The notes under the pieces: model-generated
Told to the model about the DNA's origin: nothing
The model's database searches: none
The model's input: only the letters and a program-made list of their open reading frames with translations
Translations under genes and position numbers: made by a program
Source of the DNA: Methanomassiliicoccaceae archaeon
GTDB taxonomy: Archaea > Thermoplasmatota > Thermoplasmata > Methanomassiliicoccales > Methanomassiliicoccaceae
Length of the DNA stretch: 64,000 bases
Assembly (NCBI GenBank): GCA_963728405.1
Contig: CAVSJV010000002.1
Span: 272,743-336,742, forward strand
Direction: 5' to 3'
Part shown: piece by piece, positions 23,815 through 57,869 of the stretch
Position numbering within the stretch: the stretch's first letter is position 1
How the letters are laid out: each line of letters opens with the position of its first letter

Positions 23815-25076
23815 GTGATGGTTAAGGAGTTCAGGTTCCCGGACCTCGGAGAAGGGGTCACCGAAGGCGAGATCAAGAAATGGCTGGTCAAGGAAGGGGA
23901 GGTGGTAAAGAAGGACCAATCGATCGCCGAAGTGGAGACCGATAAGGCCGTGGTAGAGATGCCTTCGCCCGTTTCCGGTCGAATGGAGAAGCTCAACTTC
24001 CCCGAAGGGGGGCTCGTCCGGGTCGGGGAGGTGCTCGCGGTCATCGCCGAGGAGCCCGGAGCCGCCCCGGAGCTGCCGGAGAAGGTCAAGGAGTCCGTAT
24101 CGGTGGTGGGCGAACTGCCGGAGTCCGATGGGACCATCATCAGCTCAAGGCCAACAGCACCGGCCATGGGTGCTGGGAAAGGGGTCCAGGCGACCCCCGC
24201 CGTTCGCAAGCTGGCCAAGGACATGGACATCGATCTGACGACCGTGACCGGAACTGGACCGGGGGGGCGGATAACCGCGGATGACCTGAAGAGACACCCC
24301 CTCGTCGCCTCTCGAGGAGAGGAGGGCCTCGCCGGCCGGATTGAAGATGCAGCCGAAGTTCGACCTGTATGGCTGGATCGACCGTAAACCGGTCCGAGGG
24401 ATCCGACGATCGACCGCCAAGCACATGGTGGAGGCGCGGAGCAAGCAGGCGCTAGTGACGACCACGGAGGTCGCCGACGTGACCGATCTGGTGGCCTTGC
24501 GGGAGAAGGTCAAGAAGTATGCGGAGGAGGTCAAAGGGGTCAAGCTGACCTACCTGCCGTTCATCATTAAGGCGGTGGTGGCCGCTCTTAAGAAGCACCC
24601 CTACCTGAACTCTTCCATGGACGAAGAGGCCGAGGATATAGTGTTCAAGAAATACTATAACATAGGAATAGCGGTGGCCACCGAAGATGGCCTGATCGTG
24701 CCAGTGCTCAAGGCGGCCGATCAAAAGGAGGTATTCTCCCTGGCCCAGGAGATCAAGGACCTGGCCGATTCCGCCGCATCGAGGAAGATCGATCTGGCGG
24801 ATCTCAAGGGAAGGGACGTTCTCCATCACCAACTACGGGATCTTCGGCGGGATATATGCAACTCCCATTCCCAATTATCCGGAAGGGGCTATACTGGGCT
24901 TGGGACGGATCCAGGACGCACCATGGGTGAAGGACGGCGAGGTGTCCATAAGGAAGCTGCTGTACCTTTCGCTCACCTTTGACCACCGCCTGATGGATGG
25001 AGCGCAGGCCGCCACCTTCCTCAACGACCTGAAGATGTTCCTGGAGAATCCGGAGCTACCGTTGATGGATCCCTAA
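23815..25076 (+). CDS. pdhC: Dihydrolipoamide acyltransferase E2, frameshifts near 24320 and 24810
   Basis: Lipoyl domain ETDKA, PSBD ATPAVRKLA..GTGPGGRI, catalytic TFSITNYG...LTFDHRLMDG in the third frame, stop at 25076. Confidence 0.9.
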
Positions 25077-25819
25077 CGGGCGCCCGTCCACTCGGGACGA
25101 CCATAGCGTTCGCGGACCAGTTCCGCTCCCCTGGCCACCTCCCAGGGGAGGAGGGGGCGCTCATACCATTCTTTCCATTGACAGAATGAGCGCTGCAGGC
25201 CGGCCAGCAGATCGGCCCGTGTCGCCGAGGTGAGCTCCGACACGGAGGTGACCCGGGCCTCCGGAGAGCTGATGCCCTTGTCCGAGACCTTGTTCTCGGC
25301 CACCCTCAGCAGGGAGAACATCCTGTTACGGTCCAGTGAATACAGGACCGTCCCGTGCTGGATGAACACACCCTCGCGGCGGGTCTGGGCGCAACCGGAG
25401 ATCTTCTTGCCTCCGACCGTTATGTCGTTGATCGGCACGTATTTGGGGTTTAGCCCCAGACCCTTGAGCGCGTCCATGACCCAGTCACACACCTCCTGGT
25501 AGGATGCGGTGATGTCCCTGCCCATGAGTTCCTCCGGAGCGATCACGCTGTAGGTGATCTCGCCGTCCCGATCGTGAAATACCGCCCCCCCGCCGCTACG
25601 CCGGCGAACGATGTCAACGCCCTGACGGTGACACTCTTCGACATCGACCTCATCGAGGAGGGATTGGAAGCAGCCGATCGATATCGCCGACGGCTCCCAA
25701 CCGTAGAACCGGATGGTGGGTGGGGACCTCGATGATCTGACCCCCTCAGCCACCGCCTCGTCCACCGCCATGTTCATAACGGCAGTCTGCCTGATGAAGG
25801 GCAAGAGGCGCCACCTCAA
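25073..25819 (-). CDS. lplA: Lipoate-protein ligase, catalytic subunit
   Basis: NMAVDEA, IGCFQ, RRRSGGGAVFHD, INDI..GKKISGCAQ, HGTVL. Confidence 0.9.
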   Translation of the reverse strand: MRWRLLPFIRQTAVMNMAVDEAVAEGVRSSRSPPTIRFYGWEPSAISIGCFQSLLDEVDVEECHRQGVDIVRRRSGGGAVFHDRDGEITYSVIAPEELMGRDITASYQEVCDWVMDALKGLGLNPKYVPINDITVGGKKISGCAQTRREGVFIQHGTVLYSLDRNRMFSLLRVAENKVSDKGISSPEARVTSVSELTSATRADLLAGLQRSFCQWKEWYERPLLPWEVARGAELVRERYGRPEWTGAR

Positions 25820-26097
25820 GATCTGGCCTCCTTGATGGCCGCGGCCAGGTCAGCTGGCCCGAACCCCAGGATCACCAAGCGGTTCTCCGATAAGACCCCC
25901 TCAACGCGCTTGGCCAGTTCCCGCTCGCTCTCCTCGATGGAGGTACCCAACAGCGCCACTTCCAGCATGGCTAGCCCGTCCTCGGGGTGGAGGAAGAAGT
26001 CCCCGGTGATCATGATCTCAGTTATGGTCGAACCATCATGCTTCAGCCGGACCCGGAGGAGCTTACCTCCCCTGACCTTGCGGCTAGCGGTCCCCAC
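25816..26097 (-). CDS. lplB: Lipoate-protein ligase accessory C-terminal subunit (LplB-type, split ligase)
   Basis: KVRGGKLLRV...ITGDFFLHPE motif, coupled to lplA as in the Thermoplasma split LplA/LplB. Confidence 0.82.
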   Translation of the reverse strand: MGTASRKVRGGKLLRVRLKHDGSTITEIMITGDFFLHPEDGLAMLEVALLGTSIEESERELAKRVEGVLSENRLVILGFGPADLAAAIKEARS

Positions 26098-26104
26098 TTG
26101 CCGC

Positions 26105-26410
26105 CTACTCCTTGGCCCATTTGAGGATCTGGTCCTTCGTTGTGCTCATTCCGCACAACGCTTTTTTGGTCTTCTCATTGAATAGCGCAGGCACGCCCAA
26201 CGACCCGCCGCATGCCTCCTTCAGCACATTGCCGTAGCTGCGCATCAGTTTGGCGTTCTCATCGGAGTGCCAGACCTCTAGCTCCGTGATCCCCCTACCT
26301 GCCTCCTTGGTCAGCTGATCGTTCGCTTCCGTCACTATGGGGTGCAGCTTCGCGCAATGGGGGCATTCCCGCCCCCAGAAGAATAACAGCCTGTTGCCTT
26401 GTTCCGCCAT
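26105..26410 (-). CDS. Thioredoxin/glutaredoxin-fold protein
   Basis: FWGRECPHC, EVWH..ENA, GVP. Start ATG at 26410. Confidence 0.85.
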   Translation of the reverse strand: MAEQGNRLLFFWGRECPHCAKLHPIVTEANDQLTKEAGRGITELEVWHSDENAKLMRSYGNVLKEACGGSLGVPALFNEKTKKALCGMSTTKDQILKWAKE

Positions 26411-26411
26411 A

Positions 26412-26842
26412 TCATTCCCTCTTGACGAAGAGTCCACACCAGCATTCGCCGGTACTCCTTGTAGACAGGTTGGATGAAGAAATTGCAGGGGCAGATGAGA
26501 TTGAGGTCACTCCTCGAGATCTCCGGTAGTTATCCGGCAGGGACAGTACTTAAGGCCGTGGTTCTTTTGGTTCTCCAGCTCTCCCGTTGCTAGCGTCCTG
26601 ACGAATTTTCGGTCGGGGTTGAGCTTGAACGGTTTACCTTCGGCAAACTTCTCCCAGGCCTCAAGAAGCTGATCTACCTGGTCCAACCTATCGCCGCGGT
26701 CGATGATGACCTTCATCGTCTCGGGGTAGTCGATCAGGGTGAAAGCGTTCTTAGCTCCGCACGTGGGGCAGACCGCTGGCCCCTTTACACCGTAGTGAAT
26801 GTCGTTGCATACATTGCATCGCCAGAGCTTCTTTACTGCCAT
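26412..26842 (-). CDS. Ferredoxin:thioredoxin reductase catalytic subunit with N-terminal rubredoxin-like domain, frameshifts near 26510 and 26450
   Basis: WRCNVC...CPTCG rubredoxin, then LNPD, YCPCR; continues as DLNLICPC and GECWCGLFVKRE in shifted frames (CPC/CPC/CxC FTR signature). Confidence 0.85.
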
Positions 26843-27089
26843 TGTAGCCCCCTGTTGACAATGAAATTGAATGAATATAAACAATTGCCAGGGGCAGTGC
26901 TGCGTGATCGTTGATGCGTTAGCCGGCTCATTCCTGGCATTATACCATCGGGTTTCCTGTCCAATATCGGCGCTGGCGCTGCATCGCCCTTTCCCGACTT
27001 CCCAACATTTTCAGGACAGCGGTAGAATTTGGAAGGTCCGTTCCCGCAACGTGTAACATATAAATTGGTGTCCCAAGCACTTTAGATCG

Positions 27090-27665
27090 GTGAAAGGATT
27101 GTTCGCAGTAAGATGTCCAGCATGCAAGGAACGCGTTGAAGGTTCGTCGTCCCAGGATCTCTCTAGGTCAGTGAAGATGCACTTCTCTGAGGTGCATGGA
27201 GTTGGTTCAGGGAGCATGGAGAAGGAACTTGCCCCACCCATGGGTACGCGTTCAACCAGTTCCATGGAGGAGTTCCAAGGCGGATCGGAGAGCAGCGGGT
27301 TTCCCCGCGAAGGCCCCGTTACTCCGGAGGACCGCGCTCCGAGAAGGAAGCCCATCAATCCGACCCCAGGCGGAGGGATCGGGTCGGGGGCCAAGGTCGA
27401 CTACAAGGAGAAGTCCTTCGAGGTAGGGGACACTGGCGCCGGCACGGGAATGGGGGGGTTCGAAAGCGGTACGGTGACCCCGGAGGGAACTGGAGGAAGC
27501 GAGGACACCAGAGGCATAAAGAGCTTCCAGTGCCCGATCTGTGGGGACGACGTAGAGGGTGAATCGGAGGAGGAACTATCGTCCAGCTTCGGTAACCACT
27601 TGATCGGTAACCACCGTGACGAGCCCTTCATCAACCGACTGATGACGAAGATCGGGAGTCGGTGA
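27090..27665 (+). CDS. Twin C2H2 (DUF1059-like) zinc-finger protein with disordered linker (Z1)
   Basis: CPAC-x18-HFSEVH and CPIC-x18-HLIGNH around a G/S/E/P-rich linker. Confidence 0.85.
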   Translation: MKGLFAVRCPACKERVEGSSSQDLSRSVKMHFSEVHGVGSGSMEKELAPPMGTRSTSSMEEFQGGSESSGFPREGPVTPEDRAPRRKPINPTPGGGIGSGAKVDYKEKSFEVGDTGAGTGMGGFESGTVTPEGTGGSEDTRGIKSFQCPICGDDVEGESEEELSSSFGNHLIGNHRDEPFINRLMTKIGSR

Positions 27666-27672
27666 GAACGCT

Positions 27673-28098
27673 ATGGTCGCAGTGCGCTGTCCCTGGTGCG
27701 AGCGTCGACTGGAAGCTGCTGACGGTGACATCCTCTCCGCTGCCCTGACCGTCCATTTTCACCGTAACCATGGTCTGGTCCTCCCGGACCCGGACCTGTT
27801 GACCGGTGGGAGGGAAGGGCACCTCTCCTCCCTGGCCGAGATAGAAGGAACGACCGGGGAGAAAGAAGTGCGAATCGGCTCCGAAATATATGGTTCTCGC
27901 TTGACCGAACGGGAGGGCGACCTCTACGGGGCCAGAGGACCACCCACCACCATAGCCGTTCAGAGAGGTAGGGAGAAACCCTTCGTGGAGTGCCCGCTAT
28001 GTGGGCTGGAAGTCCAGGGCCGCAGCGAGGGTGAGCTATCCAGAAACCTAAAGGAGCACATGAGAAAGAACAATGAGCTGGGGGGCGGTCGGGAATGA
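27673..28098 (+). CDS. Twin zinc-finger protein (Z2); second finger ends H-x4-N
   Basis: CPWC-x18-HFHRNH and CPLC-x18-HMRKNN. Confidence 0.82.
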   Translation: MVAVRCPWCERRLEAADGDILSAALTVHFHRNHGLVLPDPDLLTGGREGHLSSLAEIEGTTGEKEVRIGSEIYGSRLTEREGDLYGARGPPTTIAVQRGREKPFVECPLCGLEVQGRSEGELSRNLKEHMRKNNELGGGRE

Positions 28099-28307
28099 AC
28101 ATAAGTCCCTGCTCTGTTCGCGTCGGGAGCGTGAACGGTGTAGGGAGAGATGAGCCCGGCCCGCTTCCCGTCCCATACCGGGGTAACGAACACAATGGGG
28201 AACGGCCAAAGGTGGCAGTAGCGGGAGGTCGGGTCCGACGACGATTTCTCCGCCCGATCCAGCAATGCGTCTACCCATGGCCTAGGGGAGGAAGACGGGC
28301 GCCATGA
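28095..28307 (+). CDS. Possible small hypothetical protein inside the array
   Basis: ATGA overlap with the Z2 stop; no recognisable motif. Confidence 0.3.
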   Translation: MNISPCSVRVGSVNGVGRDEPGPLPVPYRGNEHNGERPKVAVAGGRVRRRFLRPIQQCVYPWPRGGRRAP

Positions 28308-28343
28308 AATAGTGCCAGTGGCAGACAATGGAGATGCCAGGAT

Positions 28344-28955
28344 ATGACCAGCGTTAGATGCCCGATCTGCGATCGGTCCATGACGTCAACCGACAAGGAA
28401 GGACTGAACGCGATGCTGCGAGGTCATCTCTCGGACGAACATGATATCGAGGTGCCCAAGGCGAGCGACAGTTTCTCTGGAACGTCGACCATGAACGGAT
28501 CGGGAGAGGGGATCGAGGAAGATGCCTCTCCTGTAAGGGAGGGGGGCCGCATCCACCGCGCCGAGCTGCGTCGGGAGGAGCAGTTCTATGCCCCTGAGGA
28601 AGGGACCGCTGTGCCACCGCGTCCGAAGGGATTGGGTGATTGGCTCAGGAAGGCCTTGGGAACCGACGCCGAGGACGGTGGGAAGGACGAGTGGGCCCGA
28701 GGTCAGGGATACCCATTGCTAATGGGGCGGGAGAAGAGCACATATGTTGATCAGCGGCCTCGAGAGCGGAACGAAGGGTCGGTGCTCGCTGCCCAAGAAA
28801 TGCCCCTTGAGGAAAGGGGATCGGGACGGATCAAATGCCCTATCTGCGGTGAGGCCATCGCAGGAATTGATGAGGATGGGCTTTCCGAGGAGCTTAAATT
28901 GCACATGATGGGGACTCATCAGATCGTACGCCGTGAAGCGCTGCCCCGGCAATAG
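28344..28955 (+). CDS. Twin zinc-finger protein (Z3)
   Basis: CPIC-x18-HLSDEH and CPIC-x18-HMMGTH. Confidence 0.85.
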   Translation: MTSVRCPICDRSMTSTDKEGLNAMLRGHLSDEHDIEVPKASDSFSGTSTMNGSGEGIEEDASPVREGGRIHRAELRREEQFYAPEEGTAVPPRPKGLGDWLRKALGTDAEDGGKDEWARGQGYPLLMGREKSTYVDQRPRERNEGSVLAAQEMPLEERGSGRIKCPICGEAIAGIDEDGLSEELKLHMMGTHQIVRREALPRQ

Positions 28956-29102
28956 CTGAATCTGGTGCTGAATGCCGAACTGCTCAACGGCCTGGAATCA
29001 TTGCCATACTGCGGTTCAGAATCGGCGGCCAGCCCATTTGAATGAGGTATAAACGGCCAACGTTCAAATAGGTTCCAATAAGAGATTATTTTGGTATAAT
29101 TT

Positions 29103-29666
29103 ATGACCACCATCAAATGCCCTATATGCAAGGAGAGGATCTCAGGGGCCAGTGGCGCCGACCTCAACGATAGTCTGAGGATACATCTCGTGGATGTACA
29201 CCGGATGAATGAACTGATGGGGTCCCGAAGTGGAACCTCCAGGGAGGTCACTTCCATGGAAAGGACCGTTCCGATGGGGAGGTCTACGGAGCCCGGTTAT
29301 GTCCGCGAGCCGATCAGGCGGGATCCGAGCATCGAGAGAAGGCCTGCCGCCGGTCTGTTCAGCGCCCCGGAGTCCCGGACCGAGCGGGAAGTAGAGACCT
29401 GGAGCTACCGCAGACCAGAGCGATTCCAGTCGGAGTACTACATTCCCCGGGAAGAGGTCCGGCAATGGAGATATCCCGTGATCGGAGCTGGCGGAGAGAG
29501 GGGGCCGGCTAGGGCCGAGAATCTTTTACCAGCCACGATCAATTGCCCTCTGTGCGGTGACCTTGTAAGGGGGAGGGACGAGGACGATCTTTCCGACCGG
29601 CTCCATGACCACATGGCCGATACCCACGACATCCGTCCCAAGATGTACGCGCGGTACCGGACCTGA
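29103..29666 (+). CDS. Twin zinc-finger protein (Z4)
   Basis: CPIC-x18-HLVDVH and CPLC-x18-HMADTH. Confidence 0.85.
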   Translation: MTTIKCPICKERISGASGADLNDSLRIHLVDVHRMNELMGSRSGTSREVTSMERTVPMGRSTEPGYVREPIRRDPSIERRPAAGLFSAPESRTEREVETWSYRRPERFQSEYYIPREEVRQWRYPVIGAGGERGPARAENLLPATINCPLCGDLVRGRDEDDLSDRLHDHMADTHDIRPKMYARYRT

Positions 29667-29733
29667 GCATCAAACCTCTTCCATTTTTCTGCTAAGTATT
29701 ATACCTAGCTGGCTCGCATGGTCCTACGTTAAT

Positions 29734-30121
29734 ATGACCTCGATTACGATGCCCGATATGCAGAGCCGCCATCACCGGGGACGGGGAGGCCGCACTCACC
29801 CATGGTCTCCGGGACCATATGGCCTCGACGCATGAGATCAAGGACCTTTGCGAGATGAACGAGAGGACCATGCCCCAGAATCGTGAGACCAGCTCATCGC
29901 CCCAGGATCGGGGACCGGAGGACTGGGAAAAAATAAAGAAAGGAGCGACCCCATCCGAGATGGAGATCGGCGAGGACGTGGAGCAGAGCGTCCTATGCCC
30001 GTTCTGCGGTTCCCGGGTGTTCGGCCACGACGGGGATGACCTTTCCAACATGTTGCATGATCACATCGAAGATGTCCACGATCTCAAACCGACCCGGATC
30101 ATCCCCCGGCTTAAATTCTGA
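29734..30121 (+). CDS. Twin zinc-finger protein (Z5); N-terminal finger hidden by a +1 frameshift near 29745
   Basis: ATG 29734 MTSI, then after one extra base RCPICRAAITGDGEAALTHGLRDHMASTH in frame with ORF 29819; C-terminal CPFC-x18-HIEDVH. Confidence 0.8.
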
Positions 30122-30658
30122 TCAGAGCTTCCTGATCACCGGGCTGGGGGTACGGAACTCGCCGTCCCAATAGATCAGAGTGTCGGTGCGGTCATAGTCC
30201 TGGGCCACGTCGGTATGGACGACCTTGCCCATGTACCAGATGTGGTCCCAATCAGCTCGATCGACCTGTTCCAGCTTCTTGACCTCGATGTTCAGGGGGC
30301 ACTCCACGATGCTCGGCGATCTGATCCTCTTGCCGGGCTGAGGGGTCAATCCTACCTCGGAGAATTTGTTCATCCTGCTGCCCGATTGTTGGCCGCATTT
30401 GATCACCTGCTCCAGGATGTCCTTGCCCGGCACATTGAGGGAGAAATCCTCGGCCTCCTCGAGCAGCTTGTAGCTGAACCTAGAGGACTTGATACCGATC
30501 CCGATGATGGTCGGGTCGATGGAGAACACATTGAACATCCCGATGGTGGTGACGTTGTGCTCCTTCTCTCCTACCGCAAGCAGCATGACCGGGGCCGGCG
30601 GTAGTTGCATGACCGCTTCTATCGTCCCCATGTCCAGCTTCAGTTTCTCCTCGCTCAT
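30122..30658 (-). CDS. Flavin reductase-like (flavoredoxin) family protein
   Basis: PAPVML, N..TIG, SIDP, FSLNVP, CG..SG..NKF, PSIVECPLNIE, HIWYMGKV. Confidence 0.88.
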   Translation of the reverse strand: MSEEKLKLDMGTIEAVMQLPPAPVMLLAVGEKEHNVTTIGMFNVFSIDPTIIGIGIKSSRFSYKLLEEAEDFSLNVPGKDILEQVIKCGQQSGSRMNKFSEVGLTPQPGKRIRSPSIVECPLNIEVKKLEQVDRADWDHIWYMGKVVHTDVAQDYDRTDTLIYWDGEFRTPSPVIRKL

Positions 30659-30717
30659 GGTAACTCCTTAATATAATGAACCGGCCAGCTAATAATAACC
30701 TGCCCTTACTAGTGCGG

Positions 30718-31191
30718 TCATTGGCAGGAGCGGCAAGCTGCCAGGACGGCGCCGTAGTCCGGCTGGATGGCATGGTCCGGAGCAGTCCAGGCGTACTGGA
30801 CCTTCCGGTTCACGCAAATGACGAAGACCGACCGCTCGGCATGGCCGGCCAGGAAGCGGCCGTCCGGGGTGAGGACGCCATAGCGCGAGGAGACCTGACC
30901 GCCAACATCGCTGAGGAGCCCCCATTCTATGTTCATCTGCTCCTTCCAGGCCCGATGGGATGTCGTCGAGTTGACCGAGATCCCAAGGATATGCGCACCC
31001 GCCCCTTCGATATCCTCGATGATCTCCTGGAAGGCTTTCATCTCCATGGTGCAGATGACCCCCCAGTCCGTGGGATAGAACACCAGCACCACCGTGCCCC
31101 TCCTTACCTCATCGGTCAGTCGAACGGTGCGTTCGGACGCCTCAGGCAGCTCGAAATCGGGGGCGGTATCCCCCACCATTACATGTTCCAT
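30718..31191 (-). CDS. Peroxiredoxin (AhpC/TSA, AhpE-like)
   Basis: VGDTAPDFEL, FYPTDWGVICTME, LLSD, ERSVFVI. Confidence 0.85.
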   Translation of the reverse strand: MEHVMVGDTAPDFELPEASERTVRLTDEVRRGTVVLVFYPTDWGVICTMEMKAFQEIIEDIEGAGAHILGISVNSTTSHRAWKEQMNIEWGLLSDVGGQVSSRYGVLTPDGRFLAGHAERSVFVICVNRKVQYAWTAPDHAIQPDYGAVLAACRSCQ

Positions 31192-31195
31192 CGGG

Positions 31196-31633
31196 CTAGG
31201 CCACCTCGCGGGCCCTTTCCGGCTCGTCGGGAGGGAGGTTCATCATCCTGCGCCAGGTCCGGCGGTCGACATGCTTGATATCTCCCTTCTCATCGTAGTA
31301 GTGGATCTGATAGTAGAACAGCCACCAATTATTGAGCTCAAGCAGCTTCATGCGGGTCTTCACCGCCTTCTCCTTGGGGACCACCACGACCAGGCGGCTC
31401 TTGGCCTGGAGCACTCGTGCATACTCGATCATACAGTGGGGATCGGAGAGGGTAACATCAGTCTCTACGAACTCCTTGCTCACCACGAAACGGTCCTGGC
31501 AGGCGGTGATGACCCCTCTGCCCTTGCAGATCTCGTAGGAGACGGTGGCGTCAGGATAGATCTCCGTGATCTCCCGTTGAGCATCTTTGGCCCGTTTCTG
31601 GGTGACTGCCTCGACGATCTCCTTGCCCGCCAC
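31196..31633 (-). CDS. Hypothetical protein, probable paralogue of 60082..60441
   Basis: RA..YPD.TVSYEI...EFVET...EY..LVVVVP pattern. Start probably GTG at 31633. Confidence 0.65.
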   Translation of the reverse strand: MAGKEIVEAVTQKRAKDAQREITEIYPDATVSYEICKGRGVITACQDRFVVSKEFVETDVTLSDPHCMIEYARVLQAKSRLVVVVPKEKAVKTRMKLLELNNWWLFYYQIHYYDEKGDIKHVDRRTWRRMMNLPPDEPERAREVA

Positions 31634-31744
31634 GGCAGAACAACGATTTCTATTGTATATAACGATAAAGCCAACAACCTTCGCCATAGCTGGAATAGAT
31701 AGCTGGGAACCAACCATTATTAGAGGTGGCCGGATTGGGGGTCG

Positions 31745-32101
31745 ATGGCTCGTCGGAGGAGACTGAGGATCACCCCGGTGGTGTCGGCCTTCGTGTGGGG
31801 CGTCCTCACCGGTCTGGGCATCGACCCGACCCAGATGATATTCGAGACCACTCTCAAGCAGCTCGGCCCCTATGTACAGGTAGCCTCGGTCATTCTATTC
31901 CTGGTGGTCATCTATTTTTCGTACAGCTGGATCATTGAAGGAATACAGCGCTCGAGGAGGGCCTTCCGGATTGCCGGGGCCGTTGGGATCGCCGCCATGG
32001 TCCTGGCGTTCCTCTCCGGGCTCTTCATATTCACCTGGGACAAGGCGGCTATCGTTATGGTGATCGCCGTGATCGCCTGGGTCTACGCCATCTGGAAATA
32101 A
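31745..32101 (+). CDS. Small membrane protein (about 4 TM)
   Basis: Four hydrophobic segments; GIDP motif. Confidence 0.65.
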   Translation: MARRRRLRITPVVSAFVWGVLTGLGIDPTQMIFETTLKQLGPYVQVASVILFLVVIYFSYSWIIEGIQRSRRAFRIAGAVGIAAMVLAFLSGLFIFTWDKAAIVMVIAVIAWVYAIWK

Positions 32102-32131
32102 AAAATGAACCGGCCCGCAGGCCGTAAGGTT

Positions 32132-32413
32132 TCACTGGCTGTCGATGATCTTGATCAAGTGGTAGCCGAACTCGGTCTTCACCGGGCCGACGACCTCGCC
32201 CTTTTTCGCGGCGAAGGCAGCGTCCTCGAACTTCTTGACCATCTGGCCTTTTCCGAAGGTTCCCAGGTCCCCGCCCTTGTTCTTGGAGGGGCATGTGGAG
32301 TACTCCTTGGCGATGGTCTCGAACTTCTCGCCGGACTTGATCCGGGCCAGGAGCTCGTAGGCCTTGTTCTGGTCCTTTACTAGTATGTGCGCAGCATGAA
32401 CTTTGGTGGTCAT
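32132..32413 (-). CDS. ppiC: Parvulin-type peptidyl-prolyl isomerase
   Basis: AAHILV, AKEYSTCPS..GGDLGTF..GQMV..F, PVKTEFGYHLI. Confidence 0.95.
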   Translation of the reverse strand: MTTKVHAAHILVKDQNKAYELLARIKSGEKFETIAKEYSTCPSKNKGGDLGTFGKGQMVKKFEDAAFAAKKGEVVGPVKTEFGYHLIKIIDSQ

Positions 32414-32462
32414 GAGGTCATGGCAGACCTGAACCGGAATAAATAGCTTCGGTCGATCTCTC

Positions 32463-32729
32463 TCAAACCGTGGAGATGTCGGTTATGTAGCCCCTTTGTT
32501 GATTGATCATATCCTTGATCTCCGCAACGCTGGGCACTCGTCCTTGAACCACCAATTTTCCGTTGATGAACAGGGCGGGCTGGGACATCACTCCTCGCCT
32601 CTGCGCCTCCGAGGGGTCCTGCAGCTTATCGACCTCCGGGCTCAATCCCAGCTCTTCCAGGGCAGCATGGGTCGCCACCTCTATTAAGCGACATTTGGCG
32701 CAACCGACCGAGAACACTTCGATCTTCAT
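32463..32729 (-). CDS. Small thioredoxin-like redox-active disulfide protein (MTH895 type)
   Basis: MKIEVF..GCAKC, GVMSQPALFING...GRVP. Confidence 0.85.
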   Translation of the reverse strand: MKIEVFSVGCAKCRLIEVATHAALEELGLSPEVDKLQDPSEAQRRGVMSQPALFINGKLVVQGRVPSVAEIKDMINQQRGYITDISTV

Positions 32730-32818
32730 ATTCTCACGATCTAGGATTGTTCCGCCCTAATAAATAACATCGACCGGAAAGGGGAGAAAGGATTATCGCT
32801 GTCTCCGCATGTTCCGGC

Positions 32819-33493
32819 GTGATGGTCCGCTCTCTTTTCCGCCTGGTGACGAAGCACATCGGACCCACCTACGCGTTGCAAGAGATACTCTATGGGTTGA
32901 TCATGGCCTTGGGTACCATCAGTACCGTGTCGATCGGGATCGGCCTGGATTCCAACTCCAGATATACGCTGATCGTAGCGGCAGTGGGTGTTAATATCAC
33001 CTGGGGGCTGGCGGACATGATCATGTACATGCTCACCAAAAACTTCGACCGGATGAGGCATCAGCAGTTGGCCGACGCCATCATCAGCGAACCGGACGAG
33101 GACTGGCCGCTGGATGTGATCGAATATGATCTTTCCGATACGATAGTGGAGACCCTTGACCCCGCTGACCGCCATCGCATCTATCGGGATATAATGGACT
33201 CTGAGTCCCGGGCGGTCGGCCGCCCCCTCCGGTTCAGCGTGGGTCATTTCTATGGGGGGTTGGCCTGCCTCCTCATCACTATCCTGGCAGCATTGCCCCT
33301 GGTCGTCCCATTGCTGCTCATCACCTCGCTGTCCCTGGGATTGAGGGTCGCCTCCCTCCTAGCTGTTGGCCTGCTGTTCCTGGCCGGCTATCTATGGGCC
33401 CCCTATGCCGGCCTCAGGAAGGAGTGGGCCGGCCTGGGCATGATGGGTGTGGGTGCGGTGATAACCCTGGCAACACTTGTACTGGGTGGTTGA
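32819..33493 (+). CDS. VIT1/CCC1-like membrane protein
   Basis: EILYGLIMAL, NITWGLAD, 5 TM layout with soluble insert. Confidence 0.6.
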   Translation: MMVRSLFRLVTKHIGPTYALQEILYGLIMALGTISTVSIGIGLDSNSRYTLIVAAVGVNITWGLADMIMYMLTKNFDRMRHQQLADAIISEPDEDWPLDVIEYDLSDTIVETLDPADRHRIYRDIMDSESRAVGRPLRFSVGHFYGGLACLLITILAALPLVVPLLLITSLSLGLRVASLLAVGLLFLAGYLWAPYAGLRKEWAGLGMMGVGAVITLATLVLGG

Positions 33494-33535
33494 AGCCCTT
33501 ACAATTATATCTTCGGGCCTCATTCCTCCCTTCTG

Positions 33536-34792
33536 ATGTGGAAGCAGCTGGACATCGAGCAGTGGAGCGTCAGCCGGCGAGGTAGTCTATCGGAGGTCCG
33601 CCCACCGGTCGAGGAGATCATCGCCCAGGTCAGGGAAAGAGGGGACGAGGCCCTTTTCCAGTTGACCCATAAGTTCGATAAGGTCCAACTCGATCACTTG
33701 CGCGTCTCGAGGTTGGAGATCGAGGAAGCCTACCATAAGGTGGACTCCTCGCTGGTGGATGCGTTGAGGCGGTCCAAGGCCAATATCGAGGCGTTCCACC
33801 GGATGCAGCGGCCGGCCGATCTGTGGACCAGGGAGGTCGCCCCTGGCCTGGTACTGGGTGTCAAGAACACACCTCTGGATCGCATTGGTATCTATGTTCC
33901 AGGAGGACGCGCCTCGTATCCATCGACGGTCCTGATGTGCGCCATCCCGGCCAAGGTGGCCGGGGTGGTCAACGTTGTCATGTGCACACCTCCGCCAGTG
34001 AATCCGCTGACCTTGATCGCCGCTGACATCGCCGGGGTGGACGCCATTTATACAGTGGGCGGGGCGCAGGCCGTGGCGGCCATGGCCATGGGTACGAAGA
34101 GCATCTCTCCGGTCCAGAAGATCGTCGGTCCCGGGAATGTGTATGTTACCACGGCCAAGATGTTGCTGCGGGATATGGTGGAGATAGACTCACCGGCCGG
34201 ACCGTCAGAGATCGCCATCCTGGCCGACTCCTCGGCGGACGAGACGTTCATCGCCGCCGATATCCTGGCCCAGGCGGAGCATGACCCCAATGCGGCCTGT
34301 GTCCTGGTGACCACCGACGAGGTGTTGGCCGGAAAGGTCGGCCGTGAAGTGGAAAAGATGGCCGCTCGGGCCGAGCGAAAGGAGATCGTCAGCAAGGCAT
34401 TGCTCAACTCCGGCTATGTTCTCGCTAGAGATATCCATTCGGCCATCGAGCTGGTCAACTACATCGCTCCGGAGCATCTGTCCATCCAGGTCAGCGATCC
34501 GCTGGCGGCGCTCCAAGGCATAAGGAATGCCGGTTCCATCTTCGTCGGCAAGTACGCCGCAGTGGCACTGGGCGATTATGCCTCCGGTACCAATCACGTG
34601 CTTCCGACGGCCGGTTATGCGCACGTGCATTCCGGTCTGGATGTCGCCCACTTCATGAAGCGGTCCTCGGTACAGATCGTTGAACGGGAAGGGCTGGAAT
34701 CATTGAGCGAGACGGTGGAGGCATTGGCCAAGGCCGAGGGCCTGCATGCCCATGCCCGTTCGGTTCGCCTCCGCCGAGAGAGCTCACCGTGA
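33536..34792 (+). CDS. hisD: Histidinol dehydrogenase
   Basis: YVPGGRASYPSTVLM, GGAQAVAA, GPGNVYV, AGPSE, QAEHD, APEHL, GDYASGTNHVLPT, EGLHAH. Confidence 0.97.
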   Translation: MWKQLDIEQWSVSRRGSLSEVRPPVEEIIAQVRERGDEALFQLTHKFDKVQLDHLRVSRLEIEEAYHKVDSSLVDALRRSKANIEAFHRMQRPADLWTREVAPGLVLGVKNTPLDRIGIYVPGGRASYPSTVLMCAIPAKVAGVVNVVMCTPPPVNPLTLIAADIAGVDAIYTVGGAQAVAAMAMGTKSISPVQKIVGPGNVYVTTAKMLLRDMVEIDSPAGPSEIAILADSSADETFIAADILAQAEHDPNAACVLVTTDEVLAGKVGREVEKMAARAERKEIVSKALLNSGYVLARDIHSAIELVNYIAPEHLSIQVSDPLAALQGIRNAGSIFVGKYAAVALGDYASGTNHVLPTAGYAHVHSGLDVAHFMKRSSVQIVEREGLESLSETVEALAKAEGLHAHARSVRLRRESSP

Positions 34793-57173: not shown

Positions 57174-57869
57174 ATGACCTCAGTTAAAATATCGGTGGTA
57201 TTGATCAACGGAGTAAAATGCCCGATATGCCAAGAAAGGCTCACCGGTGATAATGCCGAGGAATTGAGCGCTAGATTGAGAACGCACATGGCCGACCTTC
57301 ATAAGATGAAGGAGATCTCAACGCCCATGGGGGAGAGCGCAGGCACGAAACGACCTTCGTTCACCGCCCCTGAAAGTAAGACCGAGCGGGAGGTTTACAC
57401 CTTCAGCGGAAAGAGTGAGTCCGACCTCAGTCCCCGTGCTGTGGAACAGAGGCAGGAGGTAACCCAATTCCGCGAACCCGGGAGAACGGAGACCCAGTTG
57501 GAGAAGGAGGTCACCACCTTCAACCGGAGCGATACCTCTGAAGACTCCAAGCTTCGTCAGGAGGTTGACCGGTGGAAATACCCCACTGGGCAAGAGTCGA
57601 AGACGGAGAAGCAAGTGGAAACATTCTCTGGGAGAGAGCCGAGCATGGAGAGTGAGGAAAAGCGTCTCAAGAGCGAGGAGGTCGATGAGTGGAAGTATCC
57701 CCGGACCGGTCCGGAGGGTGAGCGCGGACCGATAACGAACCGCAAGCCAATGGCATTGATGCTAAACTGTCCGATCTGCGGTAACCCCGTATACGGCAGC
57801 GACGACGAGGACCTTTCCGACGAGCTTCGCTTCCACTTCAAGGACCTGCATGGCATCCGGCGCAAGTAA
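57174..57869 (+). CDS. Twin zinc-finger protein (Z6) with triplicated linker repeat
   Basis: CPIC-x18-HMADLH and CPIC-x18-HFKDLH; three ES.TE.EV.TF...EV..W.YP units. Start possibly TTG at 57201. Confidence 0.85.
   Translation: MTSVKISVVLINGVKCPICQERLTGDNAEELSARLRTHMADLHKMKEISTPMGESAGTKRPSFTAPESKTEREVYTFSGKSESDLSPRAVEQRQEVTQFREPGRTETQLEKEVTTFNRSDTSEDSKLRQEVDRWKYPTGQESKTEKQVETFSGREPSMESEEKRLKSEEVDEWKYPRTGPEGERGPITNRKPMALMLNCPICGNPVYGSDDEDLSDELRFHFKDLHGIRRK

Follow-up and report, generated by a model that had tools for sequence, protein, structure and literature searches.

Twin-finger proteins with motif-bearing linkers form a paralogous family in the archaeal order Methanomassiliicoccales

What are the products of five small, co-oriented genes that lie side by side among redox genes in the genome of a Methanomassiliicoccaceae archaeon? 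Archaea commonly encode small zinc-finger proteins, and, to our knowledge, a role is known for almost none of them. We analysed a stretch of 64,000 nucleotides (the window; contig CAVSJV010000002.1), to which all coordinates refer. A preliminary description of this DNA had reported five co-oriented genes and a sixth copy at 57174, all sharing one finger-linker-finger architecture, and the ORF listing and alignment bear it out. The five genes, Z1 to Z5, span 27090-30121, and Z6 lies 27 kb from the array:

27090..27665, + strand: Z1, twin-finger protein of 191 aa
27673..28098, + strand: Z2, twin-finger protein of 141 aa, 7 nt after Z1
28344..28955, + strand: Z3, twin-finger protein of 203 aa
29103..29666, + strand: Z4, twin-finger protein of 187 aa with the conserved linker motifs TEREVETW and REEVRQWRYP..GERGP
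29734..30121, + strand: Z5, twin-finger gene with a one-base insertion; the ORF list contains its 3' part as 29819-30121
57174..57869, + strand: Z6, twin-finger protein of 231 aa, with five copies of an acidic-x-V-x-x-[FW] motif in its linker

The start of Z1 is uncertain by about three codons, being either GTG at 27090 or TTG at 27099. Z1 to Z6 are paralogues, small and for the most part acidic. Two more twin-finger genes lie on other contigs of the same genome, giving eight paralogues in total with Z5 included. When every six-frame ORF of 45 aa or more from the 2.73-Mb genome was scanned with a loose regular expression, 48 ORFs matched and 7 matched twice. All seven double matches belong to the twin-finger family (Z1-Z4, Z6 and the two genes on other contigs), so the twin pattern is not due to chance. 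Only the finger-coding core is common to the paralogues at the DNA level, with 63-77% likeness in a DNA repeat comparison, which speaks for neither duplication nor gene conversion having happened recently; the family grew by old tandem duplication. Calling the array a system, as had been proposed, overstates the case, since this is a paralogous gene family and nothing shows the five genes acting jointly.

Every Z protein carries the pattern C-P-x-C-x18-H-x4-H near its N-terminus and once more near its C-terminus, and the x18 spacing recurs in all 12 fingers of the window. The invariant columns are C, P, C, L, H and H in the first finger and C, P, C, G, G, L, S and H in the second, the helix of which starts G-x-D-E-D-D-L-S. 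Among 97 twin proteins, both Cys and the first His were conserved in 100%, and the last His in 100% of N-fingers and 93% of C-fingers. The C-terminal finger of Z2 does have Asn as its fourth ligand, as had been noted earlier; Z2 orthologues likewise lack the last His and have N or G in its place, and several relatives have CPxDG or CPMGD instead of CPxC. With ligands missing from some fingers, zinc may be dispensable in parts of the family.

The fingers are predicted to adopt a beta-beta-alpha, C2H2/BED-like fold, in a DUF1059/BED-like branch. An AF2 model of the whole Z4 protein gave pLDDT values of 86-90 for the fingers and 36-57 for the linker, and a finger modelled singly had strands at residues 2-4 and 11-13 and a helix at 17-32 (pLDDT 89.6). 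Foldseek searches with the Z4 model and the single finger returned no match at E <= 0.001; the lists consisted mostly of C2H2 fingers, many of them DNA-bound, and BED fingers, all with E >1. Searches of 48,161 chains with VIA-align (best Z 3.9, nothing coherent), of the ESM Atlas (best score 0.87, under the lead threshold of 0.9) and, by sequence, of solved structures returned nothing significant. The finger helices had also been described as acidic, and acidity holds for the C-terminal fingers, with net charges of -3 to -6 (0 in Z2). The N-fingers are neutral and favour K/R at three positions of the hairpin; the tails at the C-terminus carry a basic charge of +2 to +3. Whole-protein pI was 5.1-5.8 for five of the six Z proteins, the exception being Z4, which is near neutral to basic (pI 7.7) and has a linker of pI 9.8.

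Between the fingers runs a long linker, as first described, although the range is slightly wider than the roughly 55-130 aa given then: 50-151 aa by our segmentation. The accompanying picture of plain low-complexity sequence was not sustained, because the linkers show purifying selection and conserved motifs specific to each paralogue. Relative to orthologues in the closest relative, L008 (66% identity for Z1 and 61% for Z3), dN/dS ranged from 0.06 to 0.25 across the array: 0.18 for Z1, 0.06 for Z2, 0.25 for Z3, 0.20 for Z4 and 0.12 for Z5, the last over 123 codons. The linkers alone gave 0.08-0.27. These substitution ratios show that Z1 to Z5, together with their linkers, evolve under purifying selection. 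The conserved linker motifs are specific to each paralogue, many of them acidic-aromatic and repeated, and an alignment of 24 relatives contained invariant E, W and P within the linker. The motif acidic-x-V-x-x-[FW], which was defined after looking at the data, occurred in 32 of 97 linkers as compared with 2.0 +/- 1.4 in shuffles. Linker motif copy number differs between relatives.

The earlier suggestion that the neighbouring genes are redox-related was confirmed by Pfam, which assigned FeThRed_B, thioredoxin-like, Flavin_Reduct and AhpC-TSA domains to the genes flanking the array:

26105..26410, - strand: thioredoxin-like protein (CPHC), conserved in synteny
26412..26842, - strand: ferredoxin:thioredoxin reductase (FTR) gene of the catalytic-subunit type with a rubredoxin-like domain (FeThRed_B), divergent from Z1
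30122..30658, - strand: flavin-reductase-like (flavoredoxin) gene, convergent on Z5 (Flavin_Reduct, E 4e-24)
30718..31191, - strand: peroxiredoxin (AhpC-TSA, E 1e-32), one of five in the genome

The thioredoxin-like gene likely starts at ATG 26410, directly after the FTR stop, and a parvulin-type isomerase and a second thioredoxin-fold gene also lie around the array. Rfam held no family within 24000-34000 of the window. A promoter and terminator scan, which was of a bacterial type and applied to an archaeal host, found no more sites than in shuffles. Aligning the upstream region over five genomes revealed no shared operator, the only conserved element being a TATA-like box on the FTR side.

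Z5 requires separate treatment. The reading frame shifts after its ATG at 29734, and both fingers lie in the downstream frame, 29738-30121. Repair of one frameshift had been postulated for this gene, and alignment to two relatives supports it, with a single surplus base located within codons 4-5 (at about 29743-29749). Intact orthologues encode 128 aa in L008 and 119 aa in L009. The neighbouring FTR gene is broken by two similar single-base insertions, near 26509 and 26454, as judged by alignment to relatives, which makes an assembly error the likely cause of the Z5 frameshift. Programmed frameshifting was rejected for both genes, as the relatives carry plain in-frame sequence.

The twin-finger family is confined to the order Methanomassiliicoccales. 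It was present in 23 of 23 genomes of its own family, Methanomassiliicoccaceae, in 9 of 47 genomes of a second family and in none of the other 130 genomes of the order, and a library of 1.84 billion proteins contained only 161 matches to it. The twin architecture thus recurs in related genomes, and the position of the array was kept in six of them. The order FTR-Trx, array, flavoredoxin-Prx is found in L008, L009, L011, L012 and L013 and partly in L015, with twin gene copies numbering 5, 2, 4, 4, 4 and at least 3, respectively. Orthologues of Z6 have conserved flanks in L010 and L014.

Redox genes also occur near twin-finger genes elsewhere. In the same genome, a twin gene on another contig (C5) lies about 3.5 kb from a further AhpC-TSA gene, such that two of the five AhpC-TSA genes are within 3.5 kb of the four twin loci. 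In the second family, a response regulator, a peroxiredoxin and an AhpD-like CMD gene stand beside the twin gene of L022, and a CMD gene lies 17 nt upstream of that of L025. FTR, Trx and flavoredoxin genes did not adjoin the twin genes in 10 loci of this second family, and 6 of 11 scanned non-array loci had no redox or signalling genes as neighbours. Synteny with FTR/Trx was observed in a single taxonomic family only and might there be due to common descent.

How might such proteins work? We tentatively propose that they are zinc-dependent, bivalent protein adaptors tied to thiol or peroxide stress, a reading that we regard as possible but short of probable. Judging from the ligands and the predicted fold, each finger would coordinate one Zn(II) with two Cys and two His. 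The finger would be a protein-docking handle rather than a base-reading one, and the short acidic-aromatic linker motifs, often repeated, would recruit partners specific to each paralogue. Docking fingers combined with partner-recruiting motifs would make each Z protein a bivalent or multivalent adaptor. Its placement in the thiol/peroxide stress response comes from the recurrence of twin genes beside Prx, AhpD-like, thioredoxin/FTR and flavoredoxin genes; the Cys2His2 sites could be zinc switches that respond to oxidants and are reset by the neighbouring thioredoxin system. The acidic C-fingers and the low pI of five of the six proteins were counted against base reading. Points that speak against the adaptor reading are the ligand-less fingers, the basic tails, the K/R preference of the N-fingers and the limitation of the redox synteny to one family, as well as the fact that most C2H2 and BED fingers bind nucleic acids. 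A more elaborate version, in which multivalent scaffolds use fingers and motifs to cross-link partners or each other into assemblies or condensates that are peroxide-gated and thioredoxin-reset, appears quite unlikely. A complex prediction pairing the N-finger (1-42) and C-finger (140-187) of Z4 scored 0.20, the mark being 0.32, which speaks neither for nor against contact between the two.

Nucleic-acid binding is the main rival to the adaptor reading. Here, the proteins would be regulators whose two tethered fingers bridge two DNA or RNA sites, the array being a regulator set. The dominance of DNA-bound C2H2 fingers in the Foldseek lists, a BED finger included, is what one would anticipate, as are the passing of the zf-BED cut-off by 11 of 73 relatives, the K/R preference of the N-fingers at three hairpin positions, the basic tails and the charge of Z4 and its linker. 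We nonetheless consider this rather unlikely. The C-finger helices carry a D-E-D-D run and a negative net charge, five of the six proteins are acidic, the best zf-BED score in the window was 15.5 bits against a cut-off of 20.6, every structural match had E >1, and the aligned upstream region contained no conserved operator-like element. Greater doubt attaches to redox holdases of the Hsp33 kind, in which an oxidant would free the CPxC zinc, the fingers would unfold, the aromatic-motif linker would bind clients and thioredoxin would restore the resting state. The thioredoxin, FTR, peroxiredoxin, flavoredoxin, parvulin-type isomerase and second thioredoxin-fold genes around the array would suit such a cycle, as would the recurrence of Prx and AhpD-like genes at other twin loci and the predicted flexibility of the linkers. 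However, the only match to Hsp33 in sequence or fold was a weak Foldseek row (rank 10, E 3), the sites are Cys2His2 rather than all-Cys, some fingers lack a Cys or His, and paralogue-specific motifs suit specific partners better than general client binding.

Two further explanations were considered. The automatic source name "predicted small metal-binding protein", attached to 8 of 24 listed relatives and to 4 of 10 that were looked up, suggests metal buffers or metallochaperones that chiefly store or deliver zinc or another metal, and two four-ligand sites per protein together with a His-rich linker segment (HGGG.GHR) in many Z6-type orthologues agree with it. Two sites per 140-230 residues is nevertheless a poor storage ratio, structural beta-beta-alpha sites hold zinc tightly and are not known to hand it over, the Z6 of the window lacks the His-rich segment, and the twin genes have no recurring neighbours for metal transport or metalloenzyme maturation, all of which makes this reading very unlikely. 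That the ORFs are spurious or decaying and without function is scarcely credible. The frameshift of Z5 in the assembly and the ligand-less fingers might invite this view, but it is opposed by the low dN/dS of all five array genes, the retention of the array position in six related genomes, the presence of the family in every genome of its own taxonomic family and the intact Z5 of L008 and L009; moreover, the two equally odd single-base insertions in the conserved FTR gene point to assembly error.

The twin-finger family is unusually tractable, with a clear architecture, a series of eight paralogues with differing linkers and a narrow range, and its recurring peroxiredoxin/thioredoxin neighbourhood points to oxidant exposure as the condition worth examining. 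If the fingers proved to be protein-binding or redox-switched, they would provide a first function for DUF1059 and a case of multivalent scaffolding by short motifs in archaea. Should they instead bind DNA, they would constitute a lineage-specific regulator family related to BED fingers.

Comparison with known systems returned no characterised family for the Z proteins in Pfam, NCBIfam, PADLOC, PHROGs, solved structures or the literature. NCBIfam gave only rows far below cut-offs, none of the six proteins matched the anti-phage defence models of PADLOC, and PHROGs gave only rows without an assigned function at E 1e-4 or weaker, with no annotated phage family. No published description of a twin-finger family was found in the full-text library, and the passages of it that mention DUF1059 name it only in passing.

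Several known finger types are similar in part. A classical C2H2 finger reads C-x2-4-C-x12-H-x3-5-H; the Z fingers have its Cys2His2 ligands and, by prediction, its beta-beta-alpha fold, but a spacing of 18 rather than about 12 and acidic helices. Among solved structures, the best full-length sequence match to the finger profile was the Di19-type finger of KCMF1 (residues 89-122, E 0.004-0.1), whose ligand spacing nearly equals that of the Z fingers, although the match was below every significance threshold and KCMF1 is a eukaryotic E3 ligase of unrelated architecture. Correspondingly, zf-Di19 (PF05605) was represented by weak Pfam rows, the best being 19.1 bits (Z3) against a cut-off of 27.5, and by one weak Atlas lead. 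The Rad50 zinc hook (PF04423) was not reached either (Z6 20.9 and Z3 17.2 bits; cut-off 24.3), despite two relatives passing. Its CxxC pair is shared between two chains and has no His ligands, whereas the Z fingers carry their own two His. Haloarchaeal proteins of the HVO_2753 type or Brz are small and have CPxCG zinc knuckles, some with two sites, yet they are four-Cys ribbons, about 60 aa in length and lacking a long linker, and similarity was not significant ("HVO-2753-like" chains at E 0.9-3.8, Zn_ribbon_Brz weak). Hsp33 and other zinc-thiolate switches share only the idea of a Cys zinc site by a flexible segment in a thiol-redox neighbourhood. There is no homology, and the Hsp33 zinc site is all-Cys rather than Cys2His2, making this an analogy and not membership.

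BED fingers, too, have a long spacing between C-x2-C and H, and the Z fingers are likewise predicted to form a beta-hairpin, whose knuckle bears two Cys, and a helix that bears two His. On the Foldseek list, ZBED2 and many C2H2 fingers had TM values of 0.5-0.65 (E >1). None of the window proteins reached the zf-BED (PF02892) cut-off of 20.6 bits (Z2 15.5, Z3 15.2, Z6 12.5) while 11 of 73 relatives exceeded it, so the twin family straddles the zf-BED border.

Kinship to DUF1059 (PF06348), the resemblance noted at the outset, withstood comparison with the Pfam gathering score of 21.1 bits. Four of the six window proteins scored above it (Z1 24.1, Z2 25.5, Z4 23.4 and Z6 29.4 bits), Z3 fell below at 17.9 bits and Z5 had no match; the score applies to the whole protein and sums two fingers, and single stretches rarely pass alone. 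Of 73 further twin proteins, 32 also exceeded the cut-off. The fingers match positions 11-46 of the 56-position profile, with positions 47-56 mostly unmatched. The tiny stand-alone DUF1059 proteins, mentioned in the preliminary description, are represented in the same genome by members of 66-71 aa with the same ligand pattern as the Z fingers. DUF1059 proteins are small and single-domain, whereas the Z proteins are 127-231 aa long and contain two copies joined by a long, motif-bearing linker. The finger domain family itself is known, and what sets the Z proteins apart is the placement of two DUF1059/BED-like fingers on a long linker that carries conserved motifs.

The array claimed in the preliminary description, five co-oriented genes sharing one finger-linker-finger architecture with a sixth copy at 57174, was borne out by ORF listing and alignment:

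27090-27665, plus strand: Z1, co-oriented with the array
27673-28098, plus strand: Z2
28344-28955, plus strand: Z3
29103-29666, plus strand: Z4
29819-30121, plus strand: Z5, ORF covering the 3' part only
57174-57869: Z6, outside the array

All six aligned proteins (6/6) carry C-P-x-C-x18-H-x4-H near both the N-terminus and the C-terminus. In the second finger a G following the knuckle is conserved as well, and the helix opens with G..[DE]..LS. The last ligand of Z2 is indeed Asn, as had been described. We applied a loose ligand pattern to every six-frame ORF of 45 aa or longer across the 2.73-Mb genome, and 48 ORFs matched. Only 7 matched twice and all 7 were twin genes, namely Z1-Z4 and Z6 plus a 157-aa and a 138-aa gene on other contigs. 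Counting Z5, the genome holds eight twin genes, along with several stand-alone relatives of 66-71 aa.

Departures from the ligand pattern recur among relatives. The Z2 C-finger (window 27979-28092) is without its fourth ligand, as are all Z2 orthologues, with Asn or Gly for His (L008, L011-L013, L015); a Glu one position further on, found in 6/7 Z2-type sequences, may be a substitute ligand, judging from sequence. The first two genes of the four-gene arrays in more distant relatives (L011 2774-2887 and 3420-3533; L012 and L013 alike) have additional cysteines in their fingers (CPVCxC ... C.H.HFCEEH, and CDC where the helix begins), which hint that a second site, for metal or redox, is present. 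Elsewhere the C-terminal 'finger' has one Cys (CPxDG or CPMGD, not CPxC) and retains its helix and His residues (L020 5420-5788, L021 4958-5326, L022 8050-8412 and the relative protein P0035).

The start codon of Z5 is the ATG at 29734, and the fingers sit in the next frame. Compared with two relatives, codons 4-5 of the window copy contain one surplus base; in the closest relative the gene is intact and 128 aa long. Its dN/dS was 0.12 over 123 codons, so Z5 was constrained until very recently. A conserved rubredoxin-domain gene of the ferredoxin:thioredoxin reductase catalytic type (FTR) lies 3 kb upstream of Z5 (minus strand, 26412-26842). It occupies three frames, since a single T is inserted behind GAG near 26509 and again near 26454. 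Both insertions are absent from three relatives, and CPCR...CPC...CWC is uninterrupted in L008, L009 and others. Because three single-base insertions fall within 3.3 kb, in otherwise well-conserved genes, the alignments point to assembly or sequencing indels; the broken FTR gene either results from misassembly or became a pseudogene very recently. The adjacent thioredoxin-like (Trx-like) ORF (minus strand, 26105-26437) is listed as 110 aa, and its upstream portion runs across the 3' end of FTR in a different frame; its true start is probably the ATG at 26410, two bases past the true FTR stop.

The family has a narrow taxonomic range. With a full-length profile and 201 genomes of the order, including the genome under study, twin proteins were found in 23/23 genomes of Methanomassiliicoccaceae and 9/47 of a second family; none was found among the 130 genomes sampled from the other five families, 114 of them from the largest. 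A finger profile at E ≤ 1e-6 matched 5/5 genomes of Methanomassiliicoccaceae and 0/395 others among 400 sampled from the phylum. Among 1.84 billion representative proteins there were 161 matches at E ≤ 0.001 and 88 at E ≤ 1e-10, and 102 of the best 150 had exactly two matched stretches. All named records were Methanomassiliicoccus, Methanomassiliicoccaceae or Methanomassiliicoccales, except one MAG labelled Methanomicrobia. Two family matches in a same-genus genome (G021:C25:109731-109838 and 94137-94583) contain in-frame TAG or TAA. The order uses pyrrolysine, and the TAG codons might be read through.

The resemblance to DUF1059 held: Z1, Z2, Z4 and Z6 passed the Pfam cut-off, Z3 fell below it and Z5 had no match. 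We also scanned 73 of the 97 collected twin proteins, leaving out 24 relatives of which 14 were already annotated PF06348. DUF1059 was passed by 32/73 and zf-BED by 11/73 (8 by BED only), while 3/73 matched other finger families and 30/73 had no Pfam match at E ≤ 1e-4. AlphaFold2 predicted strand-strand-helix for both fingers of whole Z4 (24-row alignment; pLDDT 86-90, linker 36-57), and a single finger reached pLDDT 89.6 (40-row alignment). Foldseek returned no significant structural match to the finger models; its non-significant lists held mostly C2H2 fingers, together with the BED finger of ZBED2. The top row was a chain of 57 residues from the cytoplasmic lattice of the mouse oocyte (TM 0.75, rmsd 1.1 Å over 33 columns, E 1.1). 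Among solved structures, the best full-length finger-profile match was the Di19-type finger of KCMF1 (E 0.004-0.1). On these Pfam, modelling, Foldseek and profile results, the domain is predicted to be a long-spaced C2H2/BED-like beta-beta-alpha finger, filed by Pfam under DUF1059.

N- and C-fingers resemble each other across proteins (36% identity) roughly as much as fingers within each class do (39-40%). The acidity reported for the finger helices applies to C-fingers (net charge -3 to -6; Z2: 0), which favor G after the knuckle and D-E-D-D ahead of the conserved L-S, and not to N-fingers (-1 to +1), where K/R is favored at three hairpin positions. C-terminal tails carry +2 to +3, and whole proteins Z1-Z6 have pI 5.1-5.8 (Z4: 7.7).

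The linkers of Z1-Z6 span 50-151 residues by our segmentation, close to the 55-130 aa first given, with 28-52% Gly+Ser+Pro+Thr; across 97 twin proteins they range from 9 to 193 (median 92). Their description as plain low complexity did not survive alignment. The 24 Z4/Z6-type relatives share invariant E, W and P and the long motifs TEREVETW and REEVRQWRYP..GERGP, Z1-, Z2-, Z3- and Z5-type orthologues each retain their own motifs, and linker dN/dS was 0.08-0.27. Many relatives have tandem short acidic-hydrophobic-aromatic units differing in copy number. The motif acidic-x-V-x-x-[FW], defined post hoc from the same data, occurred in 32/97 linkers, at least twice in 29 of these, versus 2.0 ± 1.4 shuffled linkers. 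By these sequence patterns the linkers are more than spacers. Most Z6-type orthologues have a His-rich segment, HGGG.GHR.., directly before the C-finger that is absent from the window Z6 (57174-57869 vs L010 5962-6693). Linkers at L016-L019, in the second family, consist of 3-6 near-identical tandem units, e.g. IDEVTRF..PSGG or EKVIESGK.

Redox genes flank the plus-strand array, as had been proposed. On the minus strand, lipoate ligase, Trx-like and FTR genes lie to the left, and flavoredoxin, peroxiredoxin (Prx) and a 173-aa gene to the right, followed by genes for a small membrane protein, parvulin and a thioredoxin-fold protein. This order recurs at L008, L009, L011, L012 and L013, and partially on the short contig of L015, with 5, 2, 4, 4, 4 and at least 3 twin genes, respectively. 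Since all syntenic loci belong to or sit near the same family, shared ancestry alone could explain it. The 173-aa protein (31196-31717, minus) and 118-aa membrane protein (31745-32101, plus) stay beside Prx in all related loci, and neither matches a Pfam family.

Beyond the syntenic loci, results were mixed. A tblastn search of 10 loci in 9 genomes of the second family detected no FTR, Trx or flavoredoxin. A Pfam scan covered another 11 twin loci (L005, L026, L016-L023, L025). A response regulator, Prx and AhpD-like (CMD) gene directly adjoin the twin gene of L022; at L025 a CMD gene lies 17 nt upstream. Twin genes at L016-L019 adjoin PAS histidine kinases or response regulators, those of L005 and L023 lie near URO-D-type methyltransferase genes, and nothing suggestive was seen among neighbors at L020 and L021. 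In the genome under study, the twin gene on contig C5 is ~3.5 kb from a Prx, and of its 5 AhpC-TSA genes, 2 are no more than 3.5 kb from one of the 4 twin loci; by a rough estimate, about 1.4% of random loci would have one that close. This recurring redox context outside the array synteny is suggestive, not proof, and some instances may be what is left of a single ancestral gene order.

What the data show of the family is its architecture, the conservation of its ligands, a predicted fold, purifying selection, linker motifs particular to each paralogue, a narrow taxonomic range and a redox neighborhood that recurs. We propose that each finger binds one Zn and, because the helices and the proteins overall are acidic, that the fingers would be protein-docking handles. 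Linker motifs would be short, partner-specific binding motifs, making the proteins bivalent or multivalent adaptors in the response to thiol/peroxide stress, and their zinc sites may be sensitive to oxidants. We hold this adaptor reading as a whole, stress role included, tentatively and at less than even chances.

Fold kinship and the basic hairpin and tail would instead fit nucleic-acid binding, which we regard as possible if somewhat unlikely. The redox neighborhood and flexible linker are also what an Hsp33-like redox-switched holdase might show, an improbable identity here, and the automatic name and His-rich linker segment would suit a metal buffer or chaperone, which seems more doubtful still. 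It is very hard to credit that the genes are spurious, as the frameshift and missing ligands might suggest. The remaining probability falls to explanations outside those named.

DUF1059 was mentioned only in passing in the full-text literature searched. We found no description in the literature of the twin arrangement with motif-repeat linkers, its eight-fold expansion or the conserved tandem array, in a family that is clean, lineage-specific and experimentally approachable. The domain itself is already known, as an uncharacterised Pfam family of the C2H2/BED fold class.
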